Positions 11,276-32,302 of a stretch of 64,000 nt of DNA are shown piece by piece; within the stretch, counting starts at the first letter, position 1, and every line of letters starts with the position of its first letter. A model generated the notes under the pieces. The model was not told the origin of the DNA, searched no databases, and saw only the letters and a list, made by a program, of their open reading frames with translations. The stretch lies in sequence record OQ990040; one strand, written 5' to 3'. This DNA comes from Escherichia phage SUT_E520. Both the position numbers and the translations under genes were made by a program.

Positions 11276-11618
11276 TCCTATAGTGTACTTCGCTAACAGA
11301 GGATCAACAAAAAGATCTTGTTTATCAACTTACAAATATATTATACCAATATATACAGTAAAAAGCAACTACAATTTTAAATAAGCCTATGATATTGCAT
11401 TTAAATAAAAAATTTGCTTGCTTTTAACGTGAGATGTGTGATACTAGATAATCATTTTATATCGCGTGCACGAGTGTGTGATTATACAATTTTTAATAGA
11501 GATTGGCAAATAAAATTTTTTGACTCAGATCATGTTACAGAACTTTATAGTAAAATATTGTTGACATCCGCCCTCGAATGAGTTATAATAGTAGTCTTAG
11601 TTAGAGAAGGAGAGTATA
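11276..11618. promoter_or_regulatory. divergent AT-rich promoter region between phoH (minus) and nrdD (plus)
   Basis: 340 bp non-coding with several TTGCTT/TTGACA and TATAAT-like hexamers on both strands. Confidence 0.5.
11561..11589 (+). promoter_or_regulatory. sigma70-type promoter for nrdD
   Basis: TTGACA - 17 bp - TATAAT, then GAAGGAG RBS and ATG at 11619. Confidence 0.6.
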
Positions 11619-13493
11619 ATGAATCGCAATGAAGAACTAAAGTATAAAGAAATGCAGGCGTTAATTAGAAACTGCAAAGAGATTATCGAAGGGTCAGCAG
11701 ATGAAGAGCTGCTGTTTAATAATGCTAATAAACCCTCAGAACGTTTCCCTACACAAAGGGATATGCTTGCAGGTGAATTGAGTAAGTATCTGATTCTAGA
11801 AGAAATGCCAATTCAGATTCGAAATGCTCATATGATTGGGGATATTCATTTCCATGATGCTGATTATGCTGCATTAGGCATGACTAACTGTTGTCTGGTA
11901 GCTTTGGAAGATATGTTGAAGAATGGTATGAAGGTTGGTAATGCTGAAATTAGCACTCCAAACTCTATCACTACTGCGGCGGCTATTACTGCTCAGATTA
12001 TCACTCAGGTTAGCTCCCATCAGTATGGTGGTACTTCTGTAGACCGCCTTGATGAAGTATTAGCCCCTTATGTTCGTAAATCATATGACAAAAATCATGC
12101 GTTTGCAAAACGTTGGACTAAGGATGAAGCCAAAGCATCCGTAATGGCTACGGAGATGACTGAAAAGGAAGTCTATGACGCTTGTCAGGGTTTAGAATAT
12201 GAAATCAATACCATGTTCAACTCTAACGGTCAGAGTCCATTTATTACCTTTGGTTTTGGTCTAGGAACTTCTTGGGAAGCACGTCTAGTACAGAAAGCAA
12301 TACTGAAAGTACGCATGGATGGTTTAGGTATCAATAAACGTACAGCTATCTTCCCGAAACTGGTATTTGTACTTCGTGATGGTGTTAACATGAAACCAGG
12401 AGATGTTAATTATGACATCAAGAAGTTAGCTATGAAATGTACTGCTGAACGTATGTATCCAGATTATATCAGCTATGACAAAGTTGTAGAAGTTACTGGA
12501 GACTATAAAGTTTCTATGGGCTGTCGTTCATTCCTAGCTGCTACAGAAGATGGTGAAACTGCCGGTCGTAATAACTTAGGTGTTGTTTCTGTAAACTTGC
12601 CTAGAATTGCTATCGAAGCTGAAGGAAATATTGACCTATTTTTTGATTTGCTTGAACTGCGTGTGGATACAGCGTTAAAAGCATTGGAGTGGAGAGTTGA
12701 TCGCTTAAAATACATCCAAGCTAAAGCTGCACCCATCCTCTATATGTCAGGAGCCTTTGGGTTACGCTTGGAGCCTGATGAATATGTATTCGATCATTTC
12801 TATAATCGTGCTTCTGTATCTCTAGGGTATATTGGCTGCCATGAAATGCTACAGTTCATGTTTGGCAAAGATATAGACACAATGTCCGAGACCTGCATCA
12901 AGTTTGTTCAGCGTGTATTGCAGTACATGCGGGATAGAGTCGATCAGAAGAAGGAAGAAACTAAGTTAGGTTATAGCCTGTATGCTACACCATCAGAATC
13001 CCTATGTGATCGCTTTTGTCGTCTAGACCGTGAATATTTCCCGGAACATGAAGATATTCTGTCCAAAGGATACTACACTAACTCTCACCACCTTGATGTG
13101 GAACGTAAAGTTGCTCCTAACGTGAAATTTGATTATGAATCTAACTTTACTCCGATTGCTTCTGGTGGGTGTATTTCCTACGTAGAATTACCGGATATGA
13201 AACGATTCCCAGATGCACTGGAATGGGTTATTAATTATGCTGCTAGTAAGGTTCATTACTTCGGTATTAATACTCCAGTGGATTCTTGCGGTAAATGTGG
13301 ATTCTTAGGTGAAACAATAGCATCCGAAGATGGATTTAAGTGCCCTATCTGTGGTAATCATGACCCCGAAACTCTTGAAGTAACTCGTCGAGTTTGTGGG
13401 TATCTTGGAAATCCGGGTGCTCGTCCATTTAACCCCGGCAAACAGCACGAGGTGATGGGCAGAGTGAAACATCAGGATATTCGAGCTAAATAA
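11619..13493 (+). CDS. nrdD: anaerobic ribonucleoside-triphosphate reductase (class III)
   Basis: C-terminal glycyl-radical motif RVCGYLGNP and Cys cluster CGKCGF...CPICG. Confidence 0.85.
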   Translation: MNRNEELKYKEMQALIRNCKEIIEGSADEELLFNNANKPSERFPTQRDMLAGELSKYLILEEMPIQIRNAHMIGDIHFHDADYAALGMTNCCLVALEDMLKNGMKVGNAEISTPNSITTAAAITAQIITQVSSHQYGGTSVDRLDEVLAPYVRKSYDKNHAFAKRWTKDEAKASVMATEMTEKEVYDACQGLEYEINTMFNSNGQSPFITFGFGLGTSWEARLVQKAILKVRMDGLGINKRTAIFPKLVFVLRDGVNMKPGDVNYDIKKLAMKCTAERMYPDYISYDKVVEVTGDYKVSMGCRSFLAATEDGETAGRNNLGVVSVNLPRIAIEAEGNIDLFFDLLELRVDTALKALEWRVDRLKYIQAKAAPILYMSGAFGLRLEPDEYVFDHFYNRASVSLGYIGCHEMLQFMFGKDIDTMSETCIKFVQRVLQYMRDRVDQKKEETKLGYSLYATPSESLCDRFCRLDREYFPEHEDILSKGYYTNSHHLDVERKVAPNVKFDYESNFTPIASGGCISYVELPDMKRFPDALEWVINYAASKVHYFGINTPVDSCGKCGFLGETIASEDGFKCPICGNHDPETLEVTRRVCGYLGNPGARPFNPGKQHEVMGRVKHQDIRAK

Positions 13494-13500
13494 GCTAATC

Positions 13501-13537
13501 AGCCGGGTTGCTAGTCGACCTGGCTTTTATTTTATTT
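13501..13537 (+). terminator. rho-independent terminator after nrdD
   Basis: AGCCGGGT / ACCTGGCT stem (one G-U pair) followed by TTTTATTTTATTT. Confidence 0.55.
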
Positions 13538-13564
13538 GCTTTCAGCCAAAAATTTATATATAAT
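13536..13564 (+). promoter_or_regulatory. early promoter with conserved leader
   Basis: TTGCTT - 17 bp - TATAAT, then ATAAATTTGAGAGGAG leader and ATG at 13593. Confidence 0.55.
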
Positions 13565-13592
13565 AGATTTATAAATTTGAGAGGAGAAAGGT

Positions 13593-13973
13593 ATGGAATT
13601 AAAGCCCTATATAGTTGAGTCTACATGTGGTGGTTTCCATCTTGGCGTAGACGATCTTAGAGAAGCTATTTTTGCATCTACTGGAGATTATTCCCATCTA
13701 GAGGGTATTGGATATTCATCAATTATTGGTGATTGGGTAGAAACAAATCTAGATGTATCACCATATAACTCAGATTGCTTGTTTGACGAGGATGAGGATG
13801 AAATAAAGTATGATATTGAATTTGTTTATAATAGAGTATTAAAAGTATACCAACGTAATCCCGAGGGATACGAAGATATTACTAAAGGTATTAAACAGTA
13901 TCTTAAAGATGTATACTATAATTTTTCTGATGAAGACCTAGAAACAGTTGCAGTGGAGTTTAATAATGGCTAA
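13593..13973 (+). CDS. hypothetical acidic protein (126 aa)
   Basis: ORF with strong RBS; acidic stretch DEDEDE. Confidence 0.45.
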   Translation: MELKPYIVESTCGGFHLGVDDLREAIFASTGDYSHLEGIGYSSIIGDWVETNLDVSPYNSDCLFDEDEDEIKYDIEFVYNRVLKVYQRNPEGYEDITKGIKQYLKDVYYNFSDEDLETVAVEFNNG

Positions 13974-14172
13974 GAATGTAAAACATCTTAAATATCGCTT
14001 AATTTACAATGGACGTATGGAAACAGAAGACCTGGCCCAATTAGCTATTAATTCTAACGAGGTTACAGTGCGTGCGCTGGCAATTGAAAAGTTGCGTGCC
14101 TCTTATGAAAATCGTGTTATGGAACTAGAGGAGAAACTTTATGGCATTCTCGAAGCCGATGCTACCAGATAA
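13948..14172 (+). CDS. hypothetical protein (74 aa)
   Basis: ORF track; overlapping operon spacing. Confidence 0.35.
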   Translation: MQWSLIMAKNVKHLKYRLIYNGRMETEDLAQLAINSNEVTVRALAIEKLRASYENRVMELEEKLYGILEADATR

Positions 14173-14362
14173 GGGTTTAAACGCCGCTTTGGAAAACGCA
14201 TTAATGCAGCACTGGGAAACTGGCTATAAGGATGGTGTTGAATCCTGCGCTACTATGCTAGAAGTTATTGCTAATACCTTAATGGAGAAAGGCAATAAAG
14301 AATTAGCTGAGCTATTAGACAGTATTGGGCAAAACTTCAGAGAACAGGTGAAAAATGCGTAG
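14141..14362 (+). CDS. hypothetical protein (73 aa)
   Basis: ORF track; overlapping operon spacing. Confidence 0.35.
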   Translation: MAFSKPMLPDKGLNAALENALMQHWETGYKDGVESCATMLEVIANTLMEKGNKELAELLDSIGQNFREQVKNA

Positions 14363-15170
14363 ATTAATTGTTATTAGCGGTGCAGGTTTGAGTGTTGAAA
14401 GTGGTGTACGAGCTTTTCGTACTGATACTGCTAGTGGTAAAGCATTGTGGGATGATTATGATCTAGAAGAAGTATGTAATATTCATGCCTTTCGTGGTAA
14501 TTTTTATCATAAAACCCATATGTTTTACAACAAGCGTCGTGAAGAGCTAAAAACTGTTGAACCCAATCTTGCGCATTTGCGTATCGGTGAATGGTATAAA
14601 CAATATCCAGGTCAAGTAGTAAACTTGACTACCAACGTTGATGACCTTATTGAGCGTTCTGGCGTTCCACATAATGACATTCTACACATTCATGGATATT
14701 TAAAAGAGGTTGTTGTAGCTGATAGCTACAATAGTAGCAATAAACGGATTATTGATGTAGGATACAATTCTATTGATCCAGATGATTATAAATGGGTTAA
14801 ACCTAATGTAATCTTCTTTGGAGAGCATGCTCCAGCATATGCGGAGATGTACAATGTTTTTGATGGTATTACCAGTCAAGATATGATCATTGTGGTTGGT
14901 TGCTCTAACCAAGTAATTAACTTCTACTGGGAATTATTTCCTGTTCTTAATTTGACTGCTGCCAAGCTAATGGTTGTTAACTACTATGATAGTGCCCTAG
15001 CGGCGGAACCGAGCTATCAAGGTATGACTCGTAGTGAGATGTACCAGCTGGAAGAACGCGGTATCCCTTACTGGGGTAAAGGTGCGGTAGATGCTTTCAG
15101 TGATCCTGATTTTATTGCTCGTGTAGAAGCTCATTTAGGGGGTAGACCTTATGTGTCAGGAAATAAGTAA
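14355..15170 (+). CDS. Sir2-like (sirtuin-fold) NAD-binding protein lacking the zinc ribbon
   Basis: GAGLSVESGVRAFR, NLAH...TTNVDDLIERSG, HIHGYL, PNVIFFGE and VVGCS align by eye to CobB/sirtuin motifs; no CxxC...CxxC zinc-binding cysteines. Confidence 0.7.
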   Translation: MRRLIVISGAGLSVESGVRAFRTDTASGKALWDDYDLEEVCNIHAFRGNFYHKTHMFYNKRREELKTVEPNLAHLRIGEWYKQYPGQVVNLTTNVDDLIERSGVPHNDILHIHGYLKEVVVADSYNSSNKRIIDVGYNSIDPDDYKWVKPNVIFFGEHAPAYAEMYNVFDGITSQDMIIVVGCSNQVINFYWELFPVLNLTAAKLMVVNYYDSALAAEPSYQGMTRSEMYQLEERGIPYWGKGAVDAFSDPDFIARVEAHLGGRPYVSGNK

Positions 15171-15663
15171 TACTCCAATTATTTTTCTAGACATTGATGG
15201 GGTGCTCAATTCGAGCATCTCCCACTATCATGCACCTGATGATGAAAAGATTTTCTTTGGAAGTGATTGGGTTTTCAAACCGCTTCTCAAGGCTTTTCAG
15301 GACTTTATTCGTCCTTCTCCAATAATGATTGTTGGAGTATCATCTTGGTTCTCTGTCAGAAATGAGATGGAGAACGTTCAGATTATGACCGGATTAGGCC
15401 TTATCGATCGTTTTCTTGGTACAACGGATTTTACTGGTGGTGGATTATCTAGGGGTAATTCTGTTCTTCGCTTCGTTGAAAAGCATAAGCTCAAACATTG
15501 GTGTGTGCTTGATGATGCGGGTGCTATGATGTATCAGTATCCAACGGTTATAGTCAACGGTAGGACTGGTATAAATCTTCAAGATTTAAAAGCTGTTAGC
15601 TATATGCTAGAATTTAGCCCAGATCTTGAAATGTGTAAATCCTTACAACAATTTAAGGTGTAA
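15151..15663 (+). CDS. HAD-superfamily phosphatase-like protein
   Basis: N-terminal FLDIDGVL (HAD motif I, DxDG) and a later VLDDAG acidic motif. Confidence 0.5.
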   Translation: MCQEISNTPIIFLDIDGVLNSSISHYHAPDDEKIFFGSDWVFKPLLKAFQDFIRPSPIMIVGVSSWFSVRNEMENVQIMTGLGLIDRFLGTTDFTGGGLSRGNSVLRFVEKHKLKHWCVLDDAGAMMYQYPTVIVNGRTGINLQDLKAVSYMLEFSPDLEMCKSLQQFKV

Positions 15664-15665
15664 AT

Positions 15666-16094
15666 ATGTTCAATAATGTATTCTCTAAAGAAGCTAACCC
15701 AATTTTGGTTAACTTTTGGCGTACTCTTCCAGCTAGCCTGTATAATGAGGCTATTAACTCTTTGAAAATATGGTGTGAGAATAACGAAATCTACTTTGCT
15801 TTTAAAGATGATATTGATGAAGCCCCCTGTATTGGTTTAATTGTTCAGGTAGAGGAGGGTCTTGAAGAGATTGTCGGCTGGAAAGAGTTAGATGAAATGG
15901 GCTTAGTTTTTGCGTTAAACTATAAGCTGTTTATGCCTGCTAAGCATCGCCTCGTTGTTAACTATAAAACTAGTGAATCTCCTGGTTTTCAAGTTAATGA
16001 ACGTTACGGTTGGTCTTACTCACCAGAAGAAGTGAATGATGGTATCCAAAAACTTCGCCGTTTCGGGTATATGATCCCAGGTTTAACTGCTTAA
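15666..16094 (+). CDS. hypothetical protein, paralog 1 of a tandem pair
   Basis: Shares DEAPCIGLIV, ELDEMGLVFALNYKLFMP and C-terminal RFGYMIPGL with the next ORF. Confidence 0.5.
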   Translation: MFNNVFSKEANPILVNFWRTLPASLYNEAINSLKIWCENNEIYFAFKDDIDEAPCIGLIVQVEEGLEEIVGWKELDEMGLVFALNYKLFMPAKHRLVVNYKTSESPGFQVNERYGWSYSPEEVNDGIQKLRRFGYMIPGLTA

Positions 16095-16103
16095 GGAGGC
16101 AGA

Positions 16104-16493
16104 ATGGAACAAGTATATTGGCGTCAGATTGACCCTAGTTTGGTGAAACGTGCGGAGAAGCTGCTACAACGTTGGTTGGGGGTAAGACAAGCCTCCTTCA
16201 CTTTTCCTGAGCAGCAAATAGATGATCCATGCATTGGCGTTTTCCTGTCTGGATACGCCAGGGAATGGGAACTGGATTGGAATGAGTTGTCTGCTATGGG
16301 TTTAATTGTTGCCCTAAATTTCTCTTTGTTCCATCCACGTGGTTTTGCCATATGTCGTGTGCCGGATGATGGTTGTTCGCCCCATCTTTTACAGGTGGAA
16401 AATGATATTTGGGAGTACACTCCAGATATTCTCAAAGAAGCTAAAGAACAATTAAACCGTGTTGGGATATATGTTCCGGGATTAAATGACTAA
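16104..16493 (+). CDS. hypothetical protein, paralog 2 of a tandem pair
   Basis: DDPCIGVFLSG, ELSAMGLIVALNFSLFHP and C-terminal RVGIYVPGL; GGAGG RBS. Confidence 0.5.
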   Translation: MEQVYWRQIDPSLVKRAEKLLQRWLGVRQASFTFPEQQIDDPCIGVFLSGYAREWELDWNELSAMGLIVALNFSLFHPRGFAICRVPDDGCSPHLLQVENDIWEYTPDILKEAKEQLNRVGIYVPGLND

Positions 16494-16519
16494 TGATTTT
16501 TATTAGCTGAACTCTGATT

Positions 16520-16545
16520 ACCGAGTCATTTTGGCTCGGTTTTAT
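16520..16545 (+). terminator. rho-independent terminator after the paralog pair
   Basis: ACCGAG - 9-nt loop - CTCGGT followed by TTTTAT. Confidence 0.55.
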
Positions 16546-16587
16546 CCGTACTCAAGACCAATGATAGCACCATCCGGAAAATTTTAC

Positions 16588-16616
16588 TTGCAGGATGCTC
16601 AAAATCTTGATATAAT
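16588..16616 (+). promoter_or_regulatory. promoter firing into the 16,620-17,115 non-coding region
   Basis: TTGCAG - 17 bp - TATAAT followed by a leader (ATTTATATTGAATTGAGAGAT) resembling the conserved early leader. Confidence 0.5.
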
Positions 16617-16679
16617 ATTTATATTGAATTGAGAGATATTAGTAAAAATTGATTTTGCTAATTTTTCTTGTTTACAATC

Positions 16680-17010
16680 CGCGATACGGAACAGTTAGGC
16701 TGCCCAATTAAGGGTTGTTTTAACTGTTACGTGTTAGTTTTTAAACAAATAGTTAATAGAATACTTAGCGATCTGCGTCCCGTAGGAACCCTGGTAAGGC
16801 CTCGAAGCAACCTAGATAGAGGTGGTTGTGAAGTGAGACGGGAGGAGTGAAAAACTCCGAGACGTGATTCTGTAAGTTATATTGCATCTAGTATGAGCTA
16901 GTACATGAAGCATTAGGTGAGCAAATCTGGCTTAGCGGCCATCCTCAAGGATTTGTGCGGTATAGCAAAGCAGCAGCGCAGCGTGAAAGTGGAAGTTGCC
17001 ACCCCACTTC
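16680..17010 (+). ncRNA. candidate structured non-coding RNA or long 5' leader / origin-proximal element
   Basis: GC-richer block with several local hairpins (e.g. GGAGTGAAAAACTCC), no credible ORF (only a TTG-start 60-aa ORF without RBS), no tRNA T-loop. Confidence 0.3.
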
Positions 17011-17115
17011 AGTATTTGCGATTAATTTGTTGAGAAATTGACAGTAACAGTTGTTCTATTCTTTCTGAATAGTCCTAAAGAAAACTTATTTCATTTCCAA
17101 CACAGGAGTATTGTT

Positions 17116-19905
17116 GTGTTCTCAATCCTACAAGGTCATGCAGGATTTCATCGCGATTTAGCCACAGGCAATTGGCGAGAAGTTAAAGCAGAAGACTATC
17201 TTTTTGCTAAAAGATTTTCCTCAAAGCATCCTGAAGGTAAACCAGCTTCAATGCCCTTCAAGTTTGATGTAATTGATGAAGTTGATCCTCAAACCCTAGT
17301 AGAAATGCTTCCTCTTATGAGACGTTTAACGTCTGACCCTCATATCGTTGCGGTACGAGGTCGATGTCTTACACCTAAAAATAATGTGCGACGTAAGAAG
17401 GGCAACTTTAATGTATCTAACCCAAGTCATATAATTGCAATGGACGTGGATGGTATTGTAGATACAGGTGGTTGCAACAAGTTTGATCTTGTTGGCATGG
17501 CTCGACATATTATTAGAATGTTAAATAGTATTAGTGAGGATATGTTTCCTCTTGATGCAGGGTTTATCGCTCATGCATCGTCTTCGGCTGGGCTAAAACC
17601 AGGTATCCGAATGCACTTAATACTAGAATCTAATGTTAAAGTAACTCAGGGTCAAATCAAATTCTTATTTACATCTATCAACGAAAGTAGTAGACAAAAG
17701 TATGGCTTTGATATTGCCGACTTAGCTTATTACTCTTCCGTACAGCTCCACTATTTTGCAGATCCGTTATTTACCGATGGTATAGTAGATCCGTTTAAAG
17801 CGGAGGGTGCTTCACGTCTGGTATTTGTTAAGGGTTCTAAAGTAAATTTACCCAATAATCTGGTTGACTATGAAACAACTAGAGGTGAGTTTAAGGAGGA
17901 GTTTTACTCTTTACTCGATCAAATTAAAGGTAAAAAAGCTGCCTCTGATAAAGTAGAGGAAACTATCAGCGAACTAGAAGAAGCTGAGGATGGAGTGTAT
18001 CTACGTATCATACCTAAACTCTATCACAGAGCCTTAGAGGATGGTGTTGATTTTGCATGGCTAGAAAAAGAAATCCGTCCAGCCTTATCAGAATATATTG
18101 CAACTAAAGATAACAGTCGCAATATTCAAGATTACTTTAATAACGGTCGTAAACAGGCTCTGAAAGCATTTGTTAATAATTCTAAACGTGATATACCTGA
18201 TGTTTTAAAGGGTATTCCACTTAAAAAGCTAGAAACTAATTCTCTAGAAACTGATAACTTCTTGAAATTAAATACTGTACCACCAGAAGGTTATATGACT
18301 TTTGTAAAAGCAAGTCTAGGTACAGGTAAAACTACAGCGGTTGTGCGTTGGTTAGATTCAGGAGTTATTAAAGGTAATTTCTTAGCAATTACCAATACTA
18401 GAGCACTGGTATCTTCAAATGCCAAGAAATTTAGTGCAGGACAATATGATAAGTCTGTAGATATGCTTAATTTTAAGCGGGGTGCTATTGACCGTATGTC
18501 CACAACTATTCACTCTTTGCATAAATTCAAGAGTTTTATTGGTCAAATTGATGCAATCTTTATCGATGAATGTGATGCAGTAATGAATGACCTATTATTC
18601 GCCCCGGTTGTTAAACAACGTCGCGAGTGTATTCAGGTTCTTCGGGATATTCTTGCAACTGCAAAAATCATTATATTATCTGATGGGGATATTAGTGCAG
18701 AAACAATTGAAGCATATGGTTCTTTGATTGAGTTTGATAAACCAGTAGCATTTTATAACCATCACCGTAAAATGCTATCAAAAGCTCATGCTTATGAGTT
18801 CCCGGATGAATCCAGTATTTGGGTTGCACTTCAGACTTCTCTAGAGATGGGTGAGAAATCTATCCTAGTATCTGACTGTGGGCCGGATGAACTGAATGAG
18901 AAGGGTATGGCATTGCGTCGTAATACGGGTGCGTTAGTTAAGGAAATCCACTCAAATTCTACATCCGATGTAGATATTCGACGTATTCTGGATTACACAA
19001 CTAATGAGCTAATTGATCAACAAATTGATTGCTTATTATGTAGTCCATCCGTAACAAGTGGTGTTGACTTCAACTATTTTGATAACGTATTCGTTATTAC
19101 TAGAACCAGCAACCAAGCGCCAAACATGCGTTTCCAAGCAATCAGGCGCGACCGTGGCGCTCAGAACATTTATTATTTTATTGATAAATCTACGAGTGGA
19201 TTCTCCGCAGGTTCTGAGCAATATAACATTGACGAAGGTTGGCTGGAGTTAGCACAACAATTATACGCACGTCGTAGAGAGCTGGAATCTAGGAATTATA
19301 CTAGTACTTTACGTTATTACTTGCTTGATCAGGGTGCAACTATTGATATTTTCAGTGAAAGCTGGGGAACTATCGAAGGTGCTGGGAAGGAATATACGGA
19401 AGAGCGAATCAAAGCTATTTTATATTCAACTCCTGATTATTGTGCTCCACGTCATGCTGATGCGTATGAAGCTAAACTACTTCTTGTTCGCTACTATCAT
19501 CTTGAGTCTATTAAAGATGTAACAGTTGAGCATGTTGAACAATATATCAAGGATAAACCTAATGATCGAGCGGCATTCTTCCATAAAATGCACGAGATGT
19601 TCTGGGAAGATATTAAGAAGTGTTCAAATGTCACTATCAAACCATTCATAGAAGCTCTGAAAGGTAAGAAGAAAGATTTCTTCCTTAAAACAGGTCAGAG
19701 TGCTAACCCAAAATATGCCAGAATGTATCTTGGTATGATGGGTATTGGTAAGGATATGAACACTGAAAATATTGTAGACTGGTACAGAACCTATTGTAAA
19801 ATCGAGTGTATGCCAATCCCCTATAAGTTTATGACTGATGAGGAGAAACATATGCATGATGAAGCAATGGCAGAGCTAGGTGCTAGAAATGACAGTGAAG
19901 AATAA
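17116..19905 (+). CDS. putative replication initiation protein: N-terminal primase-polymerase (AEP-like) domain fused to C-terminal SF2-type helicase/origin-binding domain
   Basis: N-terminal IIAMDVDG (hhhDhD-like) and KPGIRMHLIL (sGxGxH-like); C-terminal Walker A GTGKTT, Walker B IFIDECD, helicase-like SPSVTSGVDF and QAIRRDRG. Start moved to GTG 17116 (AGGAG RBS 7 nt upstream); the track ORF from 17038 has an implausible N-terminus. Confidence 0.6.
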   Translation: MFSILQGHAGFHRDLATGNWREVKAEDYLFAKRFSSKHPEGKPASMPFKFDVIDEVDPQTLVEMLPLMRRLTSDPHIVAVRGRCLTPKNNVRRKKGNFNVSNPSHIIAMDVDGIVDTGGCNKFDLVGMARHIIRMLNSISEDMFPLDAGFIAHASSSAGLKPGIRMHLILESNVKVTQGQIKFLFTSINESSRQKYGFDIADLAYYSSVQLHYFADPLFTDGIVDPFKAEGASRLVFVKGSKVNLPNNLVDYETTRGEFKEEFYSLLDQIKGKKAASDKVEETISELEEAEDGVYLRIIPKLYHRALEDGVDFAWLEKEIRPALSEYIATKDNSRNIQDYFNNGRKQALKAFVNNSKRDIPDVLKGIPLKKLETNSLETDNFLKLNTVPPEGYMTFVKASLGTGKTTAVVRWLDSGVIKGNFLAITNTRALVSSNAKKFSAGQYDKSVDMLNFKRGAIDRMSTTIHSLHKFKSFIGQIDAIFIDECDAVMNDLLFAPVVKQRRECIQVLRDILATAKIIILSDGDISAETIEAYGSLIEFDKPVAFYNHHRKMLSKAHAYEFPDESSIWVALQTSLEMGEKSILVSDCGPDELNEKGMALRRNTGALVKEIHSNSTSDVDIRRILDYTTNELIDQQIDCLLCSPSVTSGVDFNYFDNVFVITRTSNQAPNMRFQAIRRDRGAQNIYYFIDKSTSGFSAGSEQYNIDEGWLELAQQLYARRRELESRNYTSTLRYYLLDQGATIDIFSESWGTIEGAGKEYTEERIKAILYSTPDYCAPRHADAYEAKLLLVRYYHLESIKDVTVEHVEQYIKDKPNDRAAFFHKMHEMFWEDIKKCSNVTIKPFIEALKGKKKDFFLKTGQSANPKYARMYLGMMGIGKDMNTENIVDWYRTYCKIECMPIPYKFMTDEEKHMHDEAMAELGARNDSEE

Positions 19906-20122
19906 AAAATGGGAAACAAGGAAGTTTCCAGTAAAAGAACGTAAAGTTCCTGTTTACGACACTTCGGAAAAGCTATGTAGGGTGGTACCGCATAGATTAG
20001 CTGGCATCCCTAACATATCCGAGTGGTTACTTAAACAACGGAAAACAAACGTGTCTCTTCGTATCGGCTTTGAATTAGATAAAGTCTATGCTGAACTTGC
20101 TTCTTTACTCAAGGAATCGTAA
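19880..20122 (+). CDS. hypothetical small basic protein (80 aa; GTG start)
   Basis: ORF track; overlaps the 3' end of the preceding gene; no clear RBS. Confidence 0.3.
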   Translation: MLEMTVKNKKWETRKFPVKERKVPVYDTSEKLCRVVPHRLAGIPNISEWLLKQRKTNVSLRIGFELDKVYAELASLLKES

Positions 20123-20130
20123 AAATTTAT

Positions 20131-20159
20131 TTGCATAGTGCAAAAAATTTCTGTATAAT
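20131..20159 (+). promoter_or_regulatory. early promoter with conserved leader
   Basis: TTGCAT - 17 bp - TATAAT, then CATAAATTTGAGAGAGGAG leader and ATG at 20191. Confidence 0.55.
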
Positions 20160-20190
20160 AGATTCATAAATTTGAGAGAGGAGTTTAAAT

Positions 20191-21139: not shown

Positions 21140-21156
21140 CTACAGAAAAATTTCAG

Positions 21157-21185
21157 TTGCTTAATCCTATAATTCTTGATATAAT
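21157..21185 (+). promoter_or_regulatory. early promoter
   Basis: TTGCTT - 17 bp - TATAAT upstream of the gene at 21243. Confidence 0.5.
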
Positions 21186-21242
21186 ATTCTCATAGTTTGA
21201 AAGAACTATTCTGTTTAATTCTTAATTAAGGAAATATAAAAT

Positions 21243-21986: not shown

Positions 21987-21996
21987 GAAACCAATT

Positions 21997-22020
21997 AGCC
22001 CCTATATGGGGCTTTTTGTG
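21997..22020 (+). terminator. rho-independent terminator
   Basis: AGCCCC - TATAT - GGGGCT followed by TTTTTGTG. Confidence 0.6.
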
Positions 22021-22036
22021 TATTTGGGATATGTAA

Positions 22037-22345: not shown

Positions 22346-22362
22346 TTCTTGGCTTTTTCTTT
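22331..22362 (+). terminator. rho-independent terminator
   Basis: GCCAAGAA - TGCCTAG - TTCTTGGC followed by TTTTTCTTT. Confidence 0.6.
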
Positions 22363-22372
22363 ATAAATGTAT

Positions 22373-22401
22373 TTGCTTTCAACTCAGTTTTGTTATATAA
22401 T
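22373..22401 (+). promoter_or_regulatory. early promoter with conserved leader
   Basis: TTGCTT - 17 bp - TATAAT, then TTTATATAAATTAATGAGAGGG leader. Confidence 0.55.
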
Positions 22402-22431
22402 ATTTATATAAATTAATGAGAGGGTTGCAAA

Positions 22432-23676: not shown

Positions 23677-23726
23677 TACATAACCCTTTGCTACCCATCT
23701 ACCATATCGGAATTATAAAGTGGTTA

Positions 23727-23755
23727 TTGACATTTTCGCCGCTTAGGTATATACT
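23727..23755 (+). promoter_or_regulatory. sigma70-type promoter inside the ligase inter-ORF spacer
   Basis: TTGACA - 17 bp - TATACT. Confidence 0.55.
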
Positions 23756-23819
23756 AGTATCATTCAGTTGAGGGATAGAAAGTTATGGCGAGGGTAAGCA
23801 AAGTTAGTTAAAATTGTAG

Positions 23820-23848
23820 TTGCTAAATGCTTAAATACTTGCTATAAT
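23820..23848 (+). promoter_or_regulatory. early promoter with conserved leader
   Basis: TTGCTA - 17 bp - TATAAT, then TTTATATAAATTGATAAGGAAG leader. Confidence 0.55.
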
Positions 23849-23878
23849 ATTTATATAAATTGATAAGGAAGAAATTTG

Positions 23879-24649
23879 ATGAAAATCGAAATTCCAACAC
23901 AATGTCCCTCTTGTGGTTCTAAGCTAGATCTTGTCAACGGACAATTATTTTGTCGGAATAAGTCCAACTGTCCAGCGCAATCAAGTAAGTTAATTGAGAA
24001 CTTCTGTACAAAAATGAAGTTAAAGGGTTTTGGTCCAAAAACTATTGAGAAGCTGGAGCTGACGAAGATTTCAGAACTATTTTACCTAACCGAAGAAGAT
24101 TTGGTTAGAGCCGTGGGTAGCAAGGTTGCCGCTAAGTTAATTAGCGAATTAAATACTAAAGTTCGCGGAGACATTGACTTTGGTTCAGTTCTCGGTTCTT
24201 TAGGAATCCCTCTAATTGGAGAGGTTGCAGCAAAGAAATTATCCCAAAATTGCACTAGCTTCCACGATGTGAAGGCTGACGGCAAGGCTGGAGAAAATTA
24301 TAAAGCCTGGCTAAATTCCCCACAAGGCAAGGATGTTATCGAATTACCGTGGAAATTCTCAACTGGTGCTAAAGCTAAAACCGTCGTTACTGATGATTTA
24401 GTTGCCCAGCCAAATGGAATCGCGGTATGTATTACCGGATCTTTGCAAGACTTTGCAAATCGAACGGATGCAACAAACTATTTAGAAGGTCTAGGATATA
24501 CGGTTAAGAAATCTGTTACCAAAGACGTCAAATACCTAATCTGTGAGGATGAATCGAAGCGTTCTTCCTCATCTTATAAGAAAGCCGAAACGAATGGGAT
24601 AGAAATCCTGTCGATTAAAGAACTATTGGAGAAAAATAATAATGTCTAA
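23879..24649 (+). CDS. NAD-dependent DNA ligase, C-terminal half (Zn-finger, HhH, BRCT)
   Basis: Cys4 motif CPSCGS...CRNKSNCPAQ, HhH-like GIPLIGEVAAKKL, BRCT-like AVCITGSL...YLICED; ATG at 23879 preferred over TTG at 23876. Confidence 0.7.
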   Translation: MKIEIPTQCPSCGSKLDLVNGQLFCRNKSNCPAQSSKLIENFCTKMKLKGFGPKTIEKLELTKISELFYLTEEDLVRAVGSKVAAKLISELNTKVRGDIDFGSVLGSLGIPLIGEVAAKKLSQNCTSFHDVKADGKAGENYKAWLNSPQGKDVIELPWKFSTGAKAKTVVTDDLVAQPNGIAVCITGSLQDFANRTDATNYLEGLGYTVKKSVTKDVKYLICEDESKRSSSSYKKAETNGIEILSIKELLEKNNNV

Positions 24650-26964: not shown

Positions 26965-27851
26965 GTAGAATAACAGAACTACTTGATCTGAAAGGCATTG
27001 AATATAAAGACACAGGTGGGGACATCCTCATCTGTTGTCTCAATCCAGATCATGACGATAAACACCCAAGTTTGCGTATTGATCCTGAAACAGGTATTAT
27101 GCACTGCTTGAGTTGTGGCTTCGGTAAAGGTATACCGAGCATTTACCATTATTTTAATGAGACTCAGTACCGACAGTCTCCAAGACTATCGCAGGTACGT
27201 AAAAAGATTTCAGAGATTAGGAATGGATCTACAAATCTTGCAATTCCTGAATCTGCTTACCTTTTCGAAGGTGATTTCCGAGGTATAAGTTCTAAGACCT
27301 TGAAGAAATACTTTGCTTTCCAACACCAAGCAGACTGGGAAGGCAGAATTGTATTCCCAATCACAGATGCTGTTGGACGCAATATCCTATTTTTGGGTCG
27401 TTCTATAAACAGTTCTGCCCCTCCTAAATACTTAGTAAAACCAAAACAAGTTTCACCACCGATTTTCCCTGTACGATATAATACTCCAGTTCTTATTCTA
27501 GTTGAAGGTATCTTTGATATGCTGAACCTAGAGGATAATGGTATAGACTATGCTTCTTGCTGCTTTGGTACACATCAGTTTACTTCAGATAACATTGCAG
27601 ATAAGTTTAGCCCTTATATTATTGCTGGTGTAAAAGTTGTTGTTATCTTACTAGATAATGATGCTTCTGGTAATAAAGCTGCACAAGCGTTGGCCAAGCT
27701 AATTCGTACAAAAACGCGTTTAACACCTGTAGTGGCTAACTTTCTTCTACCCGAAGGTAAAGACCCTGGTGACTTAAATAAAGAAGAAATTGATATGTTA
27801 GCAAAACGTATTGAAATTTTAGTTGCTGAATCGCTTAAAGATTTGGTATAA
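26961..27851 (+). CDS. DnaG-like DNA primase (zinc-binding plus TOPRIM)
   Basis: CHC2-type zinc motif CCLNPDHDDKHPSL...HCLSCG, TOPRIM-like LVEGIFDMLNL and ILLDNDASG. Confidence 0.8.
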   Translation: MSRITELLDLKGIEYKDTGGDILICCLNPDHDDKHPSLRIDPETGIMHCLSCGFGKGIPSIYHYFNETQYRQSPRLSQVRKKISEIRNGSTNLAIPESAYLFEGDFRGISSKTLKKYFAFQHQADWEGRIVFPITDAVGRNILFLGRSINSSAPPKYLVKPKQVSPPIFPVRYNTPVLILVEGIFDMLNLEDNGIDYASCCFGTHQFTSDNIADKFSPYIIAGVKVVVILLDNDASGNKAAQALAKLIRTKTRLTPVVANFLLPEGKDPGDLNKEEIDMLAKRIEILVAESLKDLV

Positions 27852-27852
27852 T
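27823..27852 (+). promoter_or_regulatory. promoter for the DNA polymerase gene, within the 3' end of the primase gene
   Basis: TTGCTG - 18 bp - TGGTATAAT (extended -10); leader contains a TTGGTAAGT...ACTTACCAA hairpin ahead of a GAGGAG RBS. Confidence 0.45.
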
Positions 27853-27913
27853 ATATTGGTAAGTTAGAGAAGAAACACTGAAGTTATACTTACTTACCAA
27901 GAGGAGATTAAAT

Positions 27914-29239
27914 TTGAAAATCGCAGTAGTTGATAAAGCTCTAAATAACACTCGTTACGATAAACATTTCCAGCTATACGGCGAGGAAGTTGATGTATTT
28001 CATATGTGTAACGAGAAGTTATCTGGTCGTTTGCTTAAAAAGCACATTACTATTGGAACACCAGAAAATCCATTTGATCCGAATGATTACGATTTTGTTA
28101 TACTAGTAGGTGCTGAACCTTTCCTGTATTTCGCAGGTAAGAAAGGCATTGGTGACTATACTGGTAAACGTGTAGAATATAATGGATATGCTAACTGGAT
28201 TGCAAGTATCAGCCCAGCCCAGTTACACTTTAAGCCTGAAATGAAACCAGTTTTCGATGCAACAGTAGAGAATATCCACGATATTATCAATGGTCGTGAA
28301 AAGATTGCAAAAGCTGGTGATTACCGTCCTATTACTGACCCTGATGAGGCGGAAGAATATATCAAGATGGTGTATAATATGGTTATCGGACCTGTCGCAT
28401 TCGACTCCGAAACCTCAGCACTATACTGTCGAGATGGTTATCTGCTTGGTGTTTCTATATCTCACCAAGAGTATCAGGGTGTATATATCGATTCTGATTG
28501 TCTCACAGAGGTTGCAGTATATTATCTCCAGAAAATTCTGGATAGTGAAAACCACACTATTGTTTTTCACAACTTGAAGTTTGATATGCACTTTTATAAG
28601 TACCATCTGGGACTTACTTTTGATAAAGCACATAAAGAACGCAGGCTCCATGATACAATGTTGCAGCATTATGTTCTAGATGAGCGTCGTGGTACTCATG
28701 GCTTGAAATCTCTAGCAATGAAGTATACCGATATGGGTGACTATGACTTTGAACTAGATAAGTTCAAAGATGATTACTGCAAAGCACATAAAATCAAGAA
28801 AGAAGATTTCACCTATGATTTAATTCCGTTTGATATTATGTGGCCTTACGCTGCAAAAGATACCGATGCCACCATACGCTTGCACAACTTCTTCTTACCA
28901 AAAATTGAGAAGAATGAAAAACTTTGCAGTCTGTATTATGATGTTCTAATGCCTGGTTGTGTATTTCTCCAGCGTGTTGAGGATCGTGGTGTACCAATTT
29001 CTATTGATCGCTTGAAAGAAGCTCAGTATCAGTTAACTCATAATCTGAATAAAGCTCGTGAGAAACTATATACTTATCCAGAAGTCGTTCAGCTAGAAAA
29101 AGATCAGAATGAAGCGTTTAATCCAAACTCTGTTAAGCAGCTACGTGTTCTTCTGTTTGATTATGTTGGCTTAACTCCAACAGGTAAATTGACGGATACT
29201 GGAGCAGACTCTACAGATGCAGAAGCTCTGAACGAACTG
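27914..29239 (+). CDS. family A DNA polymerase, N-terminal part with 3'-5' exonuclease domain; interrupted by an N-run
   Basis: TTG start after AAGAGGAG RBS; exo motif FDSETSALY. Track ORF 27914..29410 reads through the gap into a wrong frame. Confidence 0.8.
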
Positions 29240-29339
29240 NNNNNNNNNNNNNNNNNNNNNNNNNNNNNNNNNNNNNNNNNNNNNNNNNNNNNNNNNNNNN
29301 NNNNNNNNNNNNNNNNNNNNNNNNNNNNNNNNNNNNNNN
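29240..29339. other. N-run (assembly gap) without duplicated flanks, inside the DNA polymerase gene
   Basis: 100 N; flanks not identical; polymerase frame resumes after the gap. Confidence 0.9.
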
Positions 29340-30350
29340 GGGTATCGTGTAATCGCATGGGACTTAACAACTGCGGAAGTTTATTATGCTGCTGTTCTAT
29401 CTGGGGATAGAAATATGCAACAGGTATTTATCAATATGAGAAATGAACCTGATAAATACCCGGACTTCCACTCTAACATCGCACACATGGTATTTAAACT
29501 CCAATGCGAGCCTCGTGATGTTAAAAAGTTATTCCCAGCTCTGCGTCAGGCTGCTAAGGCAATTACCTTCGGTATTTTGTATGGTTCTGGCCCAGCTAAA
29601 GTAGCTCATTCTGTTAACGAAGCTCTTCTGGAACAGGCTGCTAAGACAGGAGAACCGTTTGTTGAATGTACTGTTGCGGATGCGAAGGACTATATCGAAA
29701 CTTACTTCGGTCAGTTCCCACAGCTTAAGCGTTGGATTGATAAGTGCCACGATCAGATTAAGAATCATGGATTTATCTATAGTCACTTTGGTCGTAAGCG
29801 TCGTCTGCACAATATCCACTCCGAAGACCGTGGTGTTCAGGGTGAAGAAATTCGTTCTGGATTTAACGCAATCATTCAGTCTGCTTCCTCTGATAGCCTC
29901 CTTTTAGGTGCTGTAGATGCAGATAATGAGATCATTTCTCTTGGCCTAGAACAAGAGATGAAGATTGTTATGCTGGTTCATGACTCCGTGGTTGCTATTG
30001 TTCGTGAGGATTTGATCGACCAATACAATGAAATCCTGATTCGTAATATTCAGAAAGACCGTGGTATCAGTATTCCTGGCTGTCCGATTGGTATTGATTC
30101 AGATTCTGAAGCTGGAGGTTCTCGTGACTATTCTTGTGGTAAGATGAAGAAACAGCACCCATCAATCGCTTGTATTGATGATGATGAATATACTCGTTAT
30201 GTCAAGAGTGTATTACTTGATGCAGAGTTCGAGTATAAGAAACTAGCTGCAATGGATAAAGAGCATCCAGATCATAGCAAATACAAGGATGATAAGTTTA
30301 TTGCTGTATGTAAAGATTTGGATAACGTAAGAAGGATTCTCGGTGCTTGA
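29340..30350 (+). CDS. family A DNA polymerase, C-terminal polymerase part; continues out of the N-run
   Basis: Frame is open from the first base after the gap; motif B RQAAKAITFGILYG and motif C LVHDS. Confidence 0.8.
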   Translation, partial: GYRVIAWDLTTAEVYYAAVLSGDRNMQQVFINMRNEPDKYPDFHSNIAHMVFKLQCEPRDVKKLFPALRQAAKAITFGILYGSGPAKVAHSVNEALLEQAAKTGEPFVECTVADAKDYIETYFGQFPQLKRWIDKCHDQIKNHGFIYSHFGRKRRLHNIHSEDRGVQGEEIRSGFNAIIQSASSDSLLLGAVDADNEIISLGLEQEMKIVMLVHDSVVAIVREDLIDQYNEILIRNIQKDRGISIPGCPIGIDSDSEAGGSRDYSCGKMKKQHPSIACIDDDEYTRYVKSVLLDAEFEYKKLAAMDKEHPDHSKYKDDKFIAVCKDLDNVRRILGA

Positions 30351-30840
30351 TTTCAAATTGCCCGTCTATACGTTACGGGCGTTTGTATCAATTGAGCAAG
30401 AAGGTGATTATTCCGTAATTACAACAAGATATAATAAATATGTGCTAGATAACAGGAAGTTGCCTGGCACGTTTTCTCAACGTAGGCTCATTCTATTTGA
30501 GAAACGGAAAGAATTACCGTACAAGCTCTATCCTATTAGAGGTAGAATATCAATGTTGTCCCAATTAGTTGGGTCAAAGCGTAGCCAATTTATAGATTCT
30601 GATGGAAATCTTATTAATTGGAAGAAAACTACGTTCTATGATGTTGTTACCTCTAAAGTTTTGAATTCAGCTAGAATTTATAACGGAAAATACCAATGCT
30701 ATGTAGCTAAAGTTCCATACCCATTTGTATTATCCTATGTTCCAGCTTATATAAGCTATATTCTGGTAAATAATAGCCCTGTTATTTATCAAGTCCATCA
30801 AGAGGAGCCTGAAATTCCTAGACTTAGAATAAAATTATGA
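30343..30840 (+). CDS. hypothetical protein (165 aa)
   Basis: ORF track; overlapping start/stop with flanking replication genes. Confidence 0.4.
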   Translation: MLDFKLPVYTLRAFVSIEQEGDYSVITTRYNKYVLDNRKLPGTFSQRRLILFEKRKELPYKLYPIRGRISMLSQLVGSKRSQFIDSDGNLINWKKTTFYDVVTSKVLNSARIYNGKYQCYVAKVPYPFVLSYVPAYISYILVNNSPVIYQVHQEEPEIPRLRIKL

Positions 30841-32189
30841 AGGTTGTTATATCTAATAAAGCCTATTTCAAGCCCGATGATGAACTTTGGGATTATTGTA
30901 GTAAGCAAACCACTTATCACATAGAGACAATGACTAGTAAATACCCTATTATGTATAAGAATAGTGGTGTTGTTGCTAAAGAGATTAAGTGGATTCCTAT
31001 CACGCGTCTGGATTTATTAGATGCTAAAGGAGTAAAATACGAATTAGTAGATAAACGTACATTAGCTCCGGTAGATATACCAAAACCTAAGTTCAAGCTG
31101 CGTGAAGAAGACCAGCTCCCAATATATGAAGAGTGCGATGATACCTGTATTATTAATGGTAAGCCTGGGTTTGGTAAAACTATCCTAGCCCTTGCACTTG
31201 CGTATAAATTTGGCCAGAAAACTTTGGTAATCTGTACGAATACATCCATTCGTGAAATGTGGGCAGCAGAAGTTCGTAAATGGTTTGGGTTTGAACCGGG
31301 CATTATAGGTTCTGGGAAATACAATATTGATCCACCAATTGTAGTCAGTAATATTCAAACAGTGAATAAACATGCGAATAATCTTTCTAAAGTATTCGGT
31401 ACTGTTATAGTTGATGAAGTTCACCATTGTGTGGCTACAACTTTCACCAACTTCCTAGAAATATCATGTGCTCGCTATAAGATTGGACTATCTGGAACAT
31501 TAAAACGGAAAGATGGTCTACAAGTTATGTTCAAAGATTTCTTTGGATATAAGATCTTTAGCCCACCGGTTAATAATACTGTTGCACCTACAATCCATAG
31601 GTACTCCGTGCCTGTTGAGTTATCAGGAAACCAAAACGTACCATGGGCATTACGTGCTAATGATGTGTATAACCATCCTGAATATCGAGAGACTATTATA
31701 AACTTAGCACACTTATACGTGAATATGGGGCATAAAGTACTCATTGTAAGTGACAGAACAGAGTTAATCCAAACAGTACTAGAAGCTCTCGCACAGCGTG
31801 GTGTTACAACATATGAAATTATAGGGGCAACCCACTTGGATGACCGATTAAAAATTCAGGAAAATATAGCAAAAGGTGGGCCTTGTGTACTTGCAGCAGC
31901 TCAAAGTATCTTCTCTGAAGGTATTTCCCTTAATGAGCTATCTTGTTTAATAATGGGGAGTCTCATTAATAATGAATCTCTCATTGAACAGCTTGCAGGA
32001 CGTGTTCAACGTATTGTCGATGGTAAACTCGACCCTATTGTTGTAGATCTAATTATGAAAGGTGGCACTGGACTAAGACAGGCTTCTGGACGTATGGCAG
32101 TATATCGTAACAACGGGTGGAAAACTATTACCATGACTCCTGAGAAAGCAGTTCAATTAGCTAAAATTGCATTTGGCAACAGCTCATAA
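30837..32189 (+). CDS. SF2 DExH-box helicase (T5 D10-like by position)
   Basis: Walker A GKPGFGKT, DExH box VIVDEVHH, C-terminal helicase motif QLAGRVQR. Confidence 0.7.
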   Translation: MKVVISNKAYFKPDDELWDYCSKQTTYHIETMTSKYPIMYKNSGVVAKEIKWIPITRLDLLDAKGVKYELVDKRTLAPVDIPKPKFKLREEDQLPIYEECDDTCIINGKPGFGKTILALALAYKFGQKTLVICTNTSIREMWAAEVRKWFGFEPGIIGSGKYNIDPPIVVSNIQTVNKHANNLSKVFGTVIVDEVHHCVATTFTNFLEISCARYKIGLSGTLKRKDGLQVMFKDFFGYKIFSPPVNNTVAPTIHRYSVPVELSGNQNVPWALRANDVYNHPEYRETIINLAHLYVNMGHKVLIVSDRTELIQTVLEALAQRGVTTYEIIGATHLDDRLKIQENIAKGGPCVLAAAQSIFSEGISLNELSCLIMGSLINNESLIEQLAGRVQRIVDGKLDPIVVDLIMKGGTGLRQASGRMAVYRNNGWKTITMTPEKAVQLAKIAFGNSS

Positions 32190-32201
32190 ATGATGTATAA
32201 T
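32173..32201 (+). promoter_or_regulatory. early promoter with conserved leader (first of two tandem copies)
   Basis: TTGGCA - 17 bp - TATAAT, then CATAAATTTGAGAGAGAAAG and a TTCGGA...TCCGAA hairpin. Confidence 0.5.
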
Positions 32202-32272
32202 ATATACATAAATTTGAGAGAGAAAGTTTCGGATTGATAAGAAAGTCCGAAGCAGAAAAATAAAAATTTTAG

Positions 32273-32302
32273 TTGCTAAATTCTCTCGAAATCTAGTATA
32301 AT
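32273..32302 (+). promoter_or_regulatory. early promoter with conserved leader (second tandem copy)
   Basis: TTGCTA - 17/18 bp - TATAAT, then CATAAATTCGAGGAGAAAAC. Confidence 0.5.

Follow-up and report, generated by a model that had tools for sequence, protein, structure and literature searches.

Early gene blocks and their repeated promoter cassette

A 64,000-nucleotide stretch of DNA from Escherichia phage SUT_E520 (sequence record OQ990040), referred to below at its full length as the window, was analysed for a promoter cassette that recurs in front of its early genes and carries a conserved transcribed leader. Bases 11000-24000 of the window showed 100% identity to Escherichia phage SUT_E1520 and 95-97% identity to T5 and many T5-like phages; judged by its sequence, the source is a T5-like phage and an isolate distinct from T5 (SUT_E1520-like). 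The gene map was taken from the annotation of T5_ev212 across the region. Minus-strand early genes (thyA, frd, nrdAB and phoH) occupy 1-11.3 kb. The plus-strand early replication block follows at 11.6-39.2 kb and runs from nrdD to dUTPase, including the genes of the origin-binding helicase, D2, D3, ligase A/B, D5, replicative helicase, primase, DNA polymerase, D10, D11, SbcCD, D14 and D15. Minus-strand late tail genes lie downstream of 39.2 kb, and the sign of the GC skew flips at the borders of the three gene blocks. Fifteen masked runs of exactly 100 N each (29240-29339, 33454-33553, 34637-34736, 35579-35678, 36026-36125, 36968-37067, 37882-37981, 42516-42615, 43683-43782, 44180-44279, 44744-44843, 60472-60571, 60975-61074, 61526-61625 and 63569-63668) cause artificial splits of open reading frames (ORFs) and false alignment breakpoints; the DNA polymerase ORF is split in this way and listed as 27914-29410 and 29415-30350.

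The initial annotation of this DNA had proposed that at least nine intergenic sites between 11561 and 32302 share one architecture, and direct reading of the nine listed (-35 at 11561, 13536, 16588, 20131, 21157, 22373, 23820, 32173 and 32273) bore this out. An A/T-rich tract (AAAATTT-like) lies just 5' of a TTGNNN -35 hexamer, which begins with TTGC in seven of the nine, and the spacer measures 17 bp, except for 18 bp at 32273. After TATAAT come an A that never varies, a discriminator rich in A/T and a transcript start that is rich in purines and has the core (A/G)TAA(A/G)TT, with TGAGAG, GATAA or GATGAG behind it. This core of the proposed leader is common to the sites, whereas the full 18-mer ATAAATTTGAGAGRGGAG is too strict, being found with at most three mismatches at only three of them (13571, 20166 and 32208); the leaders at 11561 (CTTAGTTAGAGAAGGAG) and 21157 (ATAGTTTGAAAG) are the most divergent of the nine. 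The sites are real, but the family is larger and extends beyond the proposed range. It comprises about 18 cassettes: two more were found on the plus strand (-35 at 23727 and 27823), and the minus strand has seven at 0.9-11.4 kb (-35 at 940, 2812, 3607, 4641, 7270, 10215 and 11368).

The pattern TTG-N20-TATAATA matched 15 times against 0.50 expected, a number reached in none of 100 shuffles; all 15 matches are co-oriented with the flanking genes, and two more cassettes with an 18-bp spacer come on top of them. RTAARTT stood 5 nt after TATAATA in nine of the 45 TATAATA words of the window (0.01 matches expected for TATAATA-N5-RTAARTT; binomial P ~8e-21). For a position matrix, sixteen sites were taken from a -35/-10 scan and by eye on the basis of upstream tract and position, so that some selection bias is included in the following values. 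Information content was 0.55-1.05 bit per position at +2 to +7 and +9 to +13, lower at +1 and +8, and 0.7-1.6 bit at the A-A-A-A-T-T positions directly 5' of the -35, a tract seen at every site. In the discriminator, A at -6 was invariant and was followed by T/A/T at -5 to -3. Leave-one-out matrix scoring gave p<0.001 at 11 of the 16 sites.

Outside promoters the leader motif occurred at chance level, and it was not equally frequent in coding regions. With a leader-only matrix, 13 matches of at least 12 bits were found against 4.1 expected in total, seven of them exactly 12 nt after TATAAT and six elsewhere; at a threshold of at least 8 bits, both the observed and the expected number were 78. 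Since the non-promoter matches stay at chance level, the excess of the motif is entirely linked to promoters. A generic sigma-70 consensus scan showed no enrichment in either count (61 matches against 61.4 expected; 33 against 32.7). The criteria of such a scan are loose, and a TTGCTT-type -35 scores just 3/6 against TTGACA; only the family-specific pattern informs.

The sites front nrdD, the origin-binding helicase gene, D2, D3, ligase A/B, DNA polymerase and the D11 region, in gene orientation. At the homologous places, the T5 record AY587007 has "putative early promoter T5P25-P38" annotations; these promoters can be aligned with the window sites column for column, and the consensus of the aligned T5 promoters is TTGCTnAnTGCTnnAAATTTTnGTATAATATnTnnATAAATTnGAGAGA. 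The designation as early promoters is therefore well founded: the phage is T5-like, the sites precede early genes in the direction of those genes, and homologous promoters are annotated in T5. The same record marks repeats a, b and c over the -10 and parts of the leader. T5P33 reads TCATAAAAAATTTATTTGCTTTCAGGAAAATTTTTCTGTATAATAGATTCATAAATTTGAGAGAGGAGTTTAAATATG in T5, and its whole stretch from -10 to leader is common to site 20131, which we recognise as the classic N25 promoter.

The non-template strand of N25 at -12 to +2 was given as TATAATAGATTCAT (PMC7472727), and its transcript is without C before +30 (PMC12464699). Site 20131 carries TATAATAGATTCAT at -12 to +2 and its first C at +30, which corroborates the identity with N25 and places +1 at 20166; the other start sites follow by register. 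In the literature, the +1 of N25 is defined and those of the early promoters Ppol and P15A were obtained by primer extension (PMC7472727). The remaining cassettes presumably start at their predicted +1 and use the motif as N25 does. The element is already known, because the same consensus was published in 2012 for the T5-like phage AKFV33 (TTGCTw, TATAATA, 17-18 bp, AAAAATT at -43 and TAAATT at +1; PMC3326045). What the window contains is the early (class II) promoter set of a T5-like phage, a finding that is real and already known. Its members combine a TTGCTw -35 and a TATAATA -10 at 17-18 bp with an A-tract at about -43, an ATATT discriminator followed by TAAATT, and the orientation and orthology of the genes.

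Individual cassettes and neighbouring features

Start sites in this section were predicted by register from the N25 site. Between phoH (-) and nrdD (+), positions 11276-11618 form a divergent control region with consensus promoters at 11368 (-), 11509 (-) and 11561 (+). The promoter at 11509 (-) has TTGCCA, a 17-bp spacer, TATAAT and a G/C-rich start (CTCGTGCACGCG), and is without the early word. The cassette before nrdD (11545..11613, +; -35 TTGACA 11561, -10 TATAAT 11584, predicted +1 11596) has the divergent leader CTTAGTTAGAGAAGGAG with ATG at +24, and the T5 record holds no promoter annotation here. Further downstream, the homologue of T5P31 and 'repeat c' (13520..13588, +; -35 13536, -10 13559, +1 13571) has the leader ATAAATTTGAGAGGAG and, by direct reading, an ATG at about +23; a terminator hairpin (13501-13525) comes directly before it. 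The homologue of T5P32 (16572..16640, +; -35 16588, -10 16611, +1 16623) opens a long leader 5' of the origin-binding helicase gene, beginning with ATTGAATTGAGAGA and then a strong hairpin. This hairpin (16631-16669, +; -12.7 kcal/mol, z -4.7) is followed by the U-rich run UUUUUCUUGUUU and may be an attenuator, or mark where a short RNA of ~50 nt ends; the helicase gene begins ~400 nt beyond it.

T5P33, or N25, lies before the D2 gene (20115..20183, +; -35 20131, -10 20154, +1 20166), with the leader ATAAATTTGAGAGAGGAG, ATG at +26 and the first C at +30. The homologue of T5P34 before D3 (21141..21209, +; -35 21157, -10 21180, +1 21192) has the leader ATAGTTTGAAAGAACTAT and ATG at +52. Its leader (21192-21209, +) opens with a perfect 5'-end hairpin, AUAGUUUGAAAGAACUAU, which is kept in Enterobacter phage KKP_3711 and not in Klebsiella-type phages. 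The homologue of T5P35 and 'repeat b' (22357..22425, +; -35 22373, -10 22396, +1 22408) has the leader ATAAATTAATGAGAGG with GTG at +25, and a terminator hairpin (22328-22356) is located 5' of the cassette. In this leader an ORF of 90 codons (GTG at 22432) is inserted at 22423-22704 (+), between GAGAG and the start of ligase A. It is missing from T5 and from 24 of 30 related loci compared, and its left junction lies exactly at promoter +15. No Pfam match was obtained for three small ORFs adjoining cassettes, this one among them.

Two cassettes follow closely upon each other: the homologue of T5P36 (23711..23779, +; -35 TTGACA 23727, -10 TATACT 23750, +1 23762; leader ATTCAGTTGAGGGATAG) and, before ligase B, the homologue of T5P37 and 'repeat b' (23804..23872, +; -35 23820, -10 23843, +1 23855; leader ATAAATTGATAAGGAAG, ATG at +25). 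The cassette before the DNA polymerase gene (27807..27876, +; -35 27823, 18-bp spacer, -10 27847, +1 27859; leader GTAAGTTAGAGAAG) has a -10 that overlaps the primase stop codon and no annotation in the T5 record; it probably corresponds to the early promoter that Klimuk et al. call 'Ppol' (PMC7472727). Its leader (27859-27900, +) can form a stem closing +1 to ~+39, just 5' of the Shine-Dalgarno sequence, and the pairing shifts compensatorily among genera (L029 from 6889, L035 from 16899, L036 from 16765 and L037 from 16840 in our set of loci). The stem is GUAAG...CUUAC in coliphage, Klebsiella and Enterobacter phages, UGGAU...AUCCA in Proteus RP7 and GUAAUUC...GGAUUAC in Vibrio Chester, and may act as a 5' stabiliser or a translational operator.

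Tandem early promoters 101 bp apart are found 3' of the D10 helicase gene (32157-32326), and the transcript of the first is without an ORF. This first promoter is 'repeat c copy 7' of T5 (32157..32225, +; -35 32173, -10 32196, +1 32208); its -35 sits within the last codons of D10, and its leader ATAAATTTGAGAGAGAAAG has no start codon nearby and is followed by a hairpin. This hairpin (32226-32253, +; GUUUCGGAUU...AGUCCGAAGC; -14 kcal/mol, z -5.6) is very stable and has no U-run behind it. The second is the homologue of T5P38 (32257..32326, +; -35 32273, 18-bp spacer, -10 32297, +1 32309; leader ATAAATTCGAGGAG), from which the next ORF of at least 40 codons begins at 32410 (+102). In the Klebsiella-type relatives this place holds three promoters in tandem (L029 11337, 11429 and 11528).

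On the minus strand, the cassette nearest the window start (888..956; -35 940, -10 917, +1 905) has the leader ATAAATTTGAGAAAAC and ATG at +35. It is followed by the homologue of T5P25 (2760..2828; -35 2812, -10 2789, +1 ~2776-2777; leader (C)ATAAATTGATAAAC, ATG at +33). Weak motif matches were seen in the leaders of the T5P26 homologue (3555..3623; -35 3607, -10 3584, +1 3572; leader ATTGAAAGTGAGGAGG, ATG at +22) and of the cassette homologous by position to T5P27 (4589..4657; -35 4641, -10 4618, +1 4606; leader TATAGATTGGAGAT, ATG at +21). The homologue of T5P28 precedes the nrdB/frd/thyA operon (7218..7286; -35 7270, -10 7247, +1 7235; leader GAAATAGTGAGAAAGAGG, ATG at +26), and a weaker cassette homologous to T5P29 precedes nrdA (10163..10231; -35 TTGCCT 10215, -10 TAGAAT 10192, +1 10180; leader TAAATCCTGATAAC, ATG at +33). 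The program-called nrdA ORF starts at 10253 (-), so that this promoter (-35 at 10215) lies inside its extension; the true nrdA start is probably the ATG at 10148, giving 777 aa against ~776 aa in T5. The homologue of T5P30 before phoH (11316..11384; -35 11368, -10 11345, +1 11333) has the leader GTAAGTTGATAAAC.

A further consensus promoter was noted in the late region at 48480-48536 (-), with TTGATA, a 17-bp spacer, TATAAT, ATTGTT and the leader ATTAAAGAGGAGAAATTAACTATG; it is without the early ATAAATT word and matches T5P39, a late promoter in AY587007. Its leader is presumably identical to the 'RBSII' ribosome-binding site of the pDS/pQE expression vectors.

Function of the conserved transcribed part

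The initial annotation had placed a ribosome-binding site within the leader. This fits four of its nine sites as well as 13536, and does not fit 16588, 21157, 32173 and 32273, where a start codon comes only after 52 to more than 100 nt or not at all. Among the 18 listed cassettes, a start codon is located at +21 to +26 in eight, to which 13536 may be added by direct reading; GAGAGG, GGAG or AAGGA then stands 6-8 nt 5' of the start codon. The remaining cassettes have their start at +33 to more than +100 or lack one. The distance of the motif is fixed to the -10 and variable to the start codon, which ties the motif to the start site of transcription and not to the ribosome-binding site.

Relatives were collected via the D10 helicase, and six orthologous promoters were compared. 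Of the -10 positions 0/36 varied, of the -35 positions 6/36, of the discriminator positions 9/36 and of those at +1 to +14 11/84, against 51/104 for the spacer (spacer versus +1 to +14, Fisher p=1.6e-7), and the subtype of each promoter is retained in phages with a helicase just 50-68% identical. A matrix trained on the window and applied, as an independent test, at the +1 of consensus promoters from other genera gave p<0.01 in 5/6 cases for the Klebsiella-type phage, 8/14 for Enterobacter KKP_3711, 5/12 for Vibrio Chester, 5/17 for Proteus RP7 and 5/10 for Vibrio D432, and in 0/5 for a metagenomic contig with a helicase 40% identical. Over the whole T5 genome, p<0.01 was reached by 25 of 34 annotated early promoters, many of which lie beyond the window, by none of five pre-early and by one of three late promoters; these classes are "putative" in the record, the late and pre-early samples are small and the automatic choice of the -10 was wrong for 2-3 entries. 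Like the anatomy, the statistics and the orthology to annotated T5 promoters, this conservation and class specificity were observed directly. Modestly new are the early-class specificity, the retention at orthologous promoters amid spacer turnover and the recurrence in Klebsiella, Enterobacter, Proteus and Vibrio relatives.

Two side results were obtained in these searches. Viral contigs were scanned with TTG-N20-TATAATA-N5-ATAAATT, and the matches listed include many unrelated A/T-rich contigs; six metagenomic viral contigs of unrelated appearance (loci L055, L066, L068, L101, L106 and L107) have TTGACA, a 17-bp spacer, TATAATAACAAC and ATAAATT(T/A)GAGAGGTAAAAATG, and so resemble the cassettes closely in the layout of promoter, leader and ribosome-binding site. 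Because the search pattern itself imposed ATAAATT, these matches indicate neither enrichment nor spread. The record PQ773600.1 (41 kb, named Corynebacterium phage CPphiVTCCBPA_418) has a D10 helicase 97% identical to that of this coliphage, which suggests that it is contaminated or mislabelled.

The function of the transcribed part has been studied on N25. Replacing its +3 to +20 by an "anti" sequence lowered productive RNA ~10-fold and lengthened the half-life of escape from ~3 to ~45 min, and the authors concluded that evolution had shaped the native initial transcribed sequence for faster escape (PMC12464699). The first report of a more than 10-fold effect in vivo is credited in PMC5961368 to Kammerer et al. 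1986, a study cited by PMC12464699 as well. Over +1 to +20 of the 18 cassettes, purines make up 70% against 53% in the background and C 5.3% against 17.8% (19 C, 63.9 expected, P=1.6e-12), and a purine-rich, C-poor composition is the one linked to productive escape (PMC12464699, PMC5961368). The cassette is probably a compact unit of ~70-80 bp read by the host sigma-70 polymerase, in which the transcribed part works mainly at the level of DNA and RNA polymerase and aids escape. It is built from an UP-like A-tract at about -43, the -35 TTGCTw, a spacer of 17-18 bp, an extended -10 TATAATA, an ATATT-like discriminator, a start A and the initial transcribed sequence ATAAATT(T/G/A)...GAGAG. Polymerase would be bound so tightly at these promoters that escape becomes rate-limiting, and a transcribed part that is A/T-rich over the first 8 nt, then purine-rich and nearly free of C on the non-template strand, would favour fast escape and high productive output, as with N25. 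Where the gene starts 21-26 nt downstream, the purine run could double as Shine-Dalgarno sequence, so that promoter, leader and ribosome-binding site are united in one cassette. The claim that the leader makes the element "not just a promoter" is thereby modified: the transcribed part is real and constrained, and the ~10-fold escape effect in N25 marks it as a working part of the promoter rather than as a distinct element (PMC12464699, PMC5961368).

Several points weigh against a role in escape as described. The motif match is poor in four or five window cassettes (3584, 4618, 10192, 11584), and one search of the literature for start-site or transcriptome data on T5 turned up nothing relevant. 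The functional evidence comes from N25 alone and from a wholesale swap instead of point mutations (PMC12464699; PMC5961368). Purine-richness alone fails to explain why the specific word ATAAATT is kept across genera. Furthermore, the annotated pre-early promoters of T5 carry no motif (0/5), although they too use the unmodified host polymerase; an account purely in terms of what is "optimal for sigma-70" would not lead one to expect such class specificity.

It is unlikely that the leader acts mainly on RNA, with its A/U-rich 5' end and Shine-Dalgarno sequence forming a translation-initiation cassette (S1-binding enhancer and ribosome-binding site) or serving mRNA stability. The geometry of the nine short leaders described above is consistent with such a role, as are the like geometry of many early promoters that T5 has beyond the window (P8, P9, P14, P16, P20 and P22) and the first ~8 nt, which are unpaired in most predicted leader folds. 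However, the motif is equally conserved at 16623, 21192, 27859, 32208, 32309, 905 and 2777, where starts lie at +33 to more than +100 and have separate Shine-Dalgarno sequences of their own, and it shows no enrichment in the rest of the window, internal ribosome-binding sites included. No Rfam family reached the gathering score in the window, and no fold shared by eleven leaders was found; the motif was mostly unpaired, and strong downstream hairpins occurred in just two of these leaders and are mutually unrelated. From the suggested post-transcriptional element there remains the purine run as Shine-Dalgarno sequence in short leaders, while a common fold, an Rfam family and a constant distance to the ATG were not found. 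An RNA-level translation role likely contributes in the short-leader cassettes and cannot account for conservation in the long-leader ones.

A second possibility, which we regard as quite unlikely, is that the early-class block from about -6 to +13 (ATATTC-ATAAATTTGAGAG), found from coliphages to Vibrio and Proteus Demerecviridae, is the cis-target of the temporal switch, possibly alongside a function in escape. It would serve for recognising and later silencing the early promoters, with RNA polymerase bound by gpT5.026, the D5 DNA-binding protein or another factor reading either the DNA or the nascent 5' RNA. Besides the class specificity in T5 and the conservation at orthologous promoters and across genera, it is favoured by the statement of Klimuk et al. 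2020 that the mechanism of the T5 switch is unknown (PMC7472727). The same authors found that gpT5.026 lowers the binding of RNA polymerase to the -5/+2 non-template segment of N25 ~8-10-fold, and proposed the ATATT discriminator carried by all known early promoters as the basis of differing effects on early and late genes (PMC7472727). On the other hand, no protein is known to bind the element, the classes of AY587007 are "putative" with very small late and pre-early samples, and the effect of the N25 initial transcribed sequence occurs with host polymerase alone. The consensus ATATTCATAAATTTGAGAG, read directly, is also without extended dyad or direct-repeat symmetry beyond the 6-bp palindrome AAATTT. 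Thus the proposed recognition element stands as a class-specific conserved block and a candidate target of the switch. If this reading were true, the block would explain the early-to-late transcription switch of T5, for which it is a defined and testable candidate cis-element.

That the similarity reflects ancestry alone, with recent duplicates or recombination-homogenised repeats and an unselected transcribed part, is very improbable: although the T5 record labels the cassette parts merely as dispersed repeats a, b and c and the neighbours 32196 and 32297 have an identical 19-mer, paralogous cassettes diverge freely in spacer and upstream flank and not in the -10 to +13 block, the retention of subtypes locus by locus in distant relatives while 49% of spacer positions vary disfavours recent duplication, and the one indel examined (22423-22704) is a plain ORF insertion in the leader with no exchange between leader copies.

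Recombination at the cassettes was considered separately. Six of 19 clusters of alignment breakpoints lie within 70 nt of a promoter +1, for which intergenic location alone could account. The idea was rejected as unsupported, the best case (22423) being the plain insertion, in which the leader is not duplicated.

Comparison with known promoters

The closest known counterparts are the T5 early promoters including PN25 (T5P6-P38, AY587007), which have the same elements, positions and downstream genes as the cassettes of the window and reportedly go back to Gentz & Bujard 1985. Differences from T5 are limited in kind: small changes in spacers, for example in that of N25; the extra ORF of 90 codons between the T5P35 homologue and ligase A; and the cassettes 11561 and 27823, which are without counterpart annotation in the T5 record. 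The cassettes are textbook promoters; widely used expression vectors are built on N25, which has also served research on promoter escape for decades. The cassette therefore matters little as a discovery, and what is useful in it is comparative.

T4 early, T7 A1 and lambda PL promoters are likewise read by sigma-70, have UP-like A-tracts and an extended consensus, are repeated before early genes and out-compete host promoters; in them, unlike in the cassettes, extensions of the consensus are found upstream and around the -10, and their definition does not, to our knowledge, include a common transcribed word of ~13 nt. A preference for NAD capping was considered and set aside, as -1 is a pyrimidine and +2 is T in the cassettes. 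The sigma-70 promoter-proximal pause elements, -10-like hexamers early in the transcribed region as at lambda PR', offer a lead only: TAAATT at +2 to +7 fits the -10 key positions T1, A2 and T6. No pause is reported for N25 in the cited N25 studies.

In the studies on escape from N25 (PMC12464699, PMC5961368), the replaced stretch within +1 to +20 is the very region of the conserved leader described here. They deal with one promoter and with general composition, and do not address the conservation of a word in ~25 early promoters and in the early class only; compared with this single promoter, each T5-like genome offers a natural set of ~25 variants on which the control of escape by the initial transcribed sequence can be studied.

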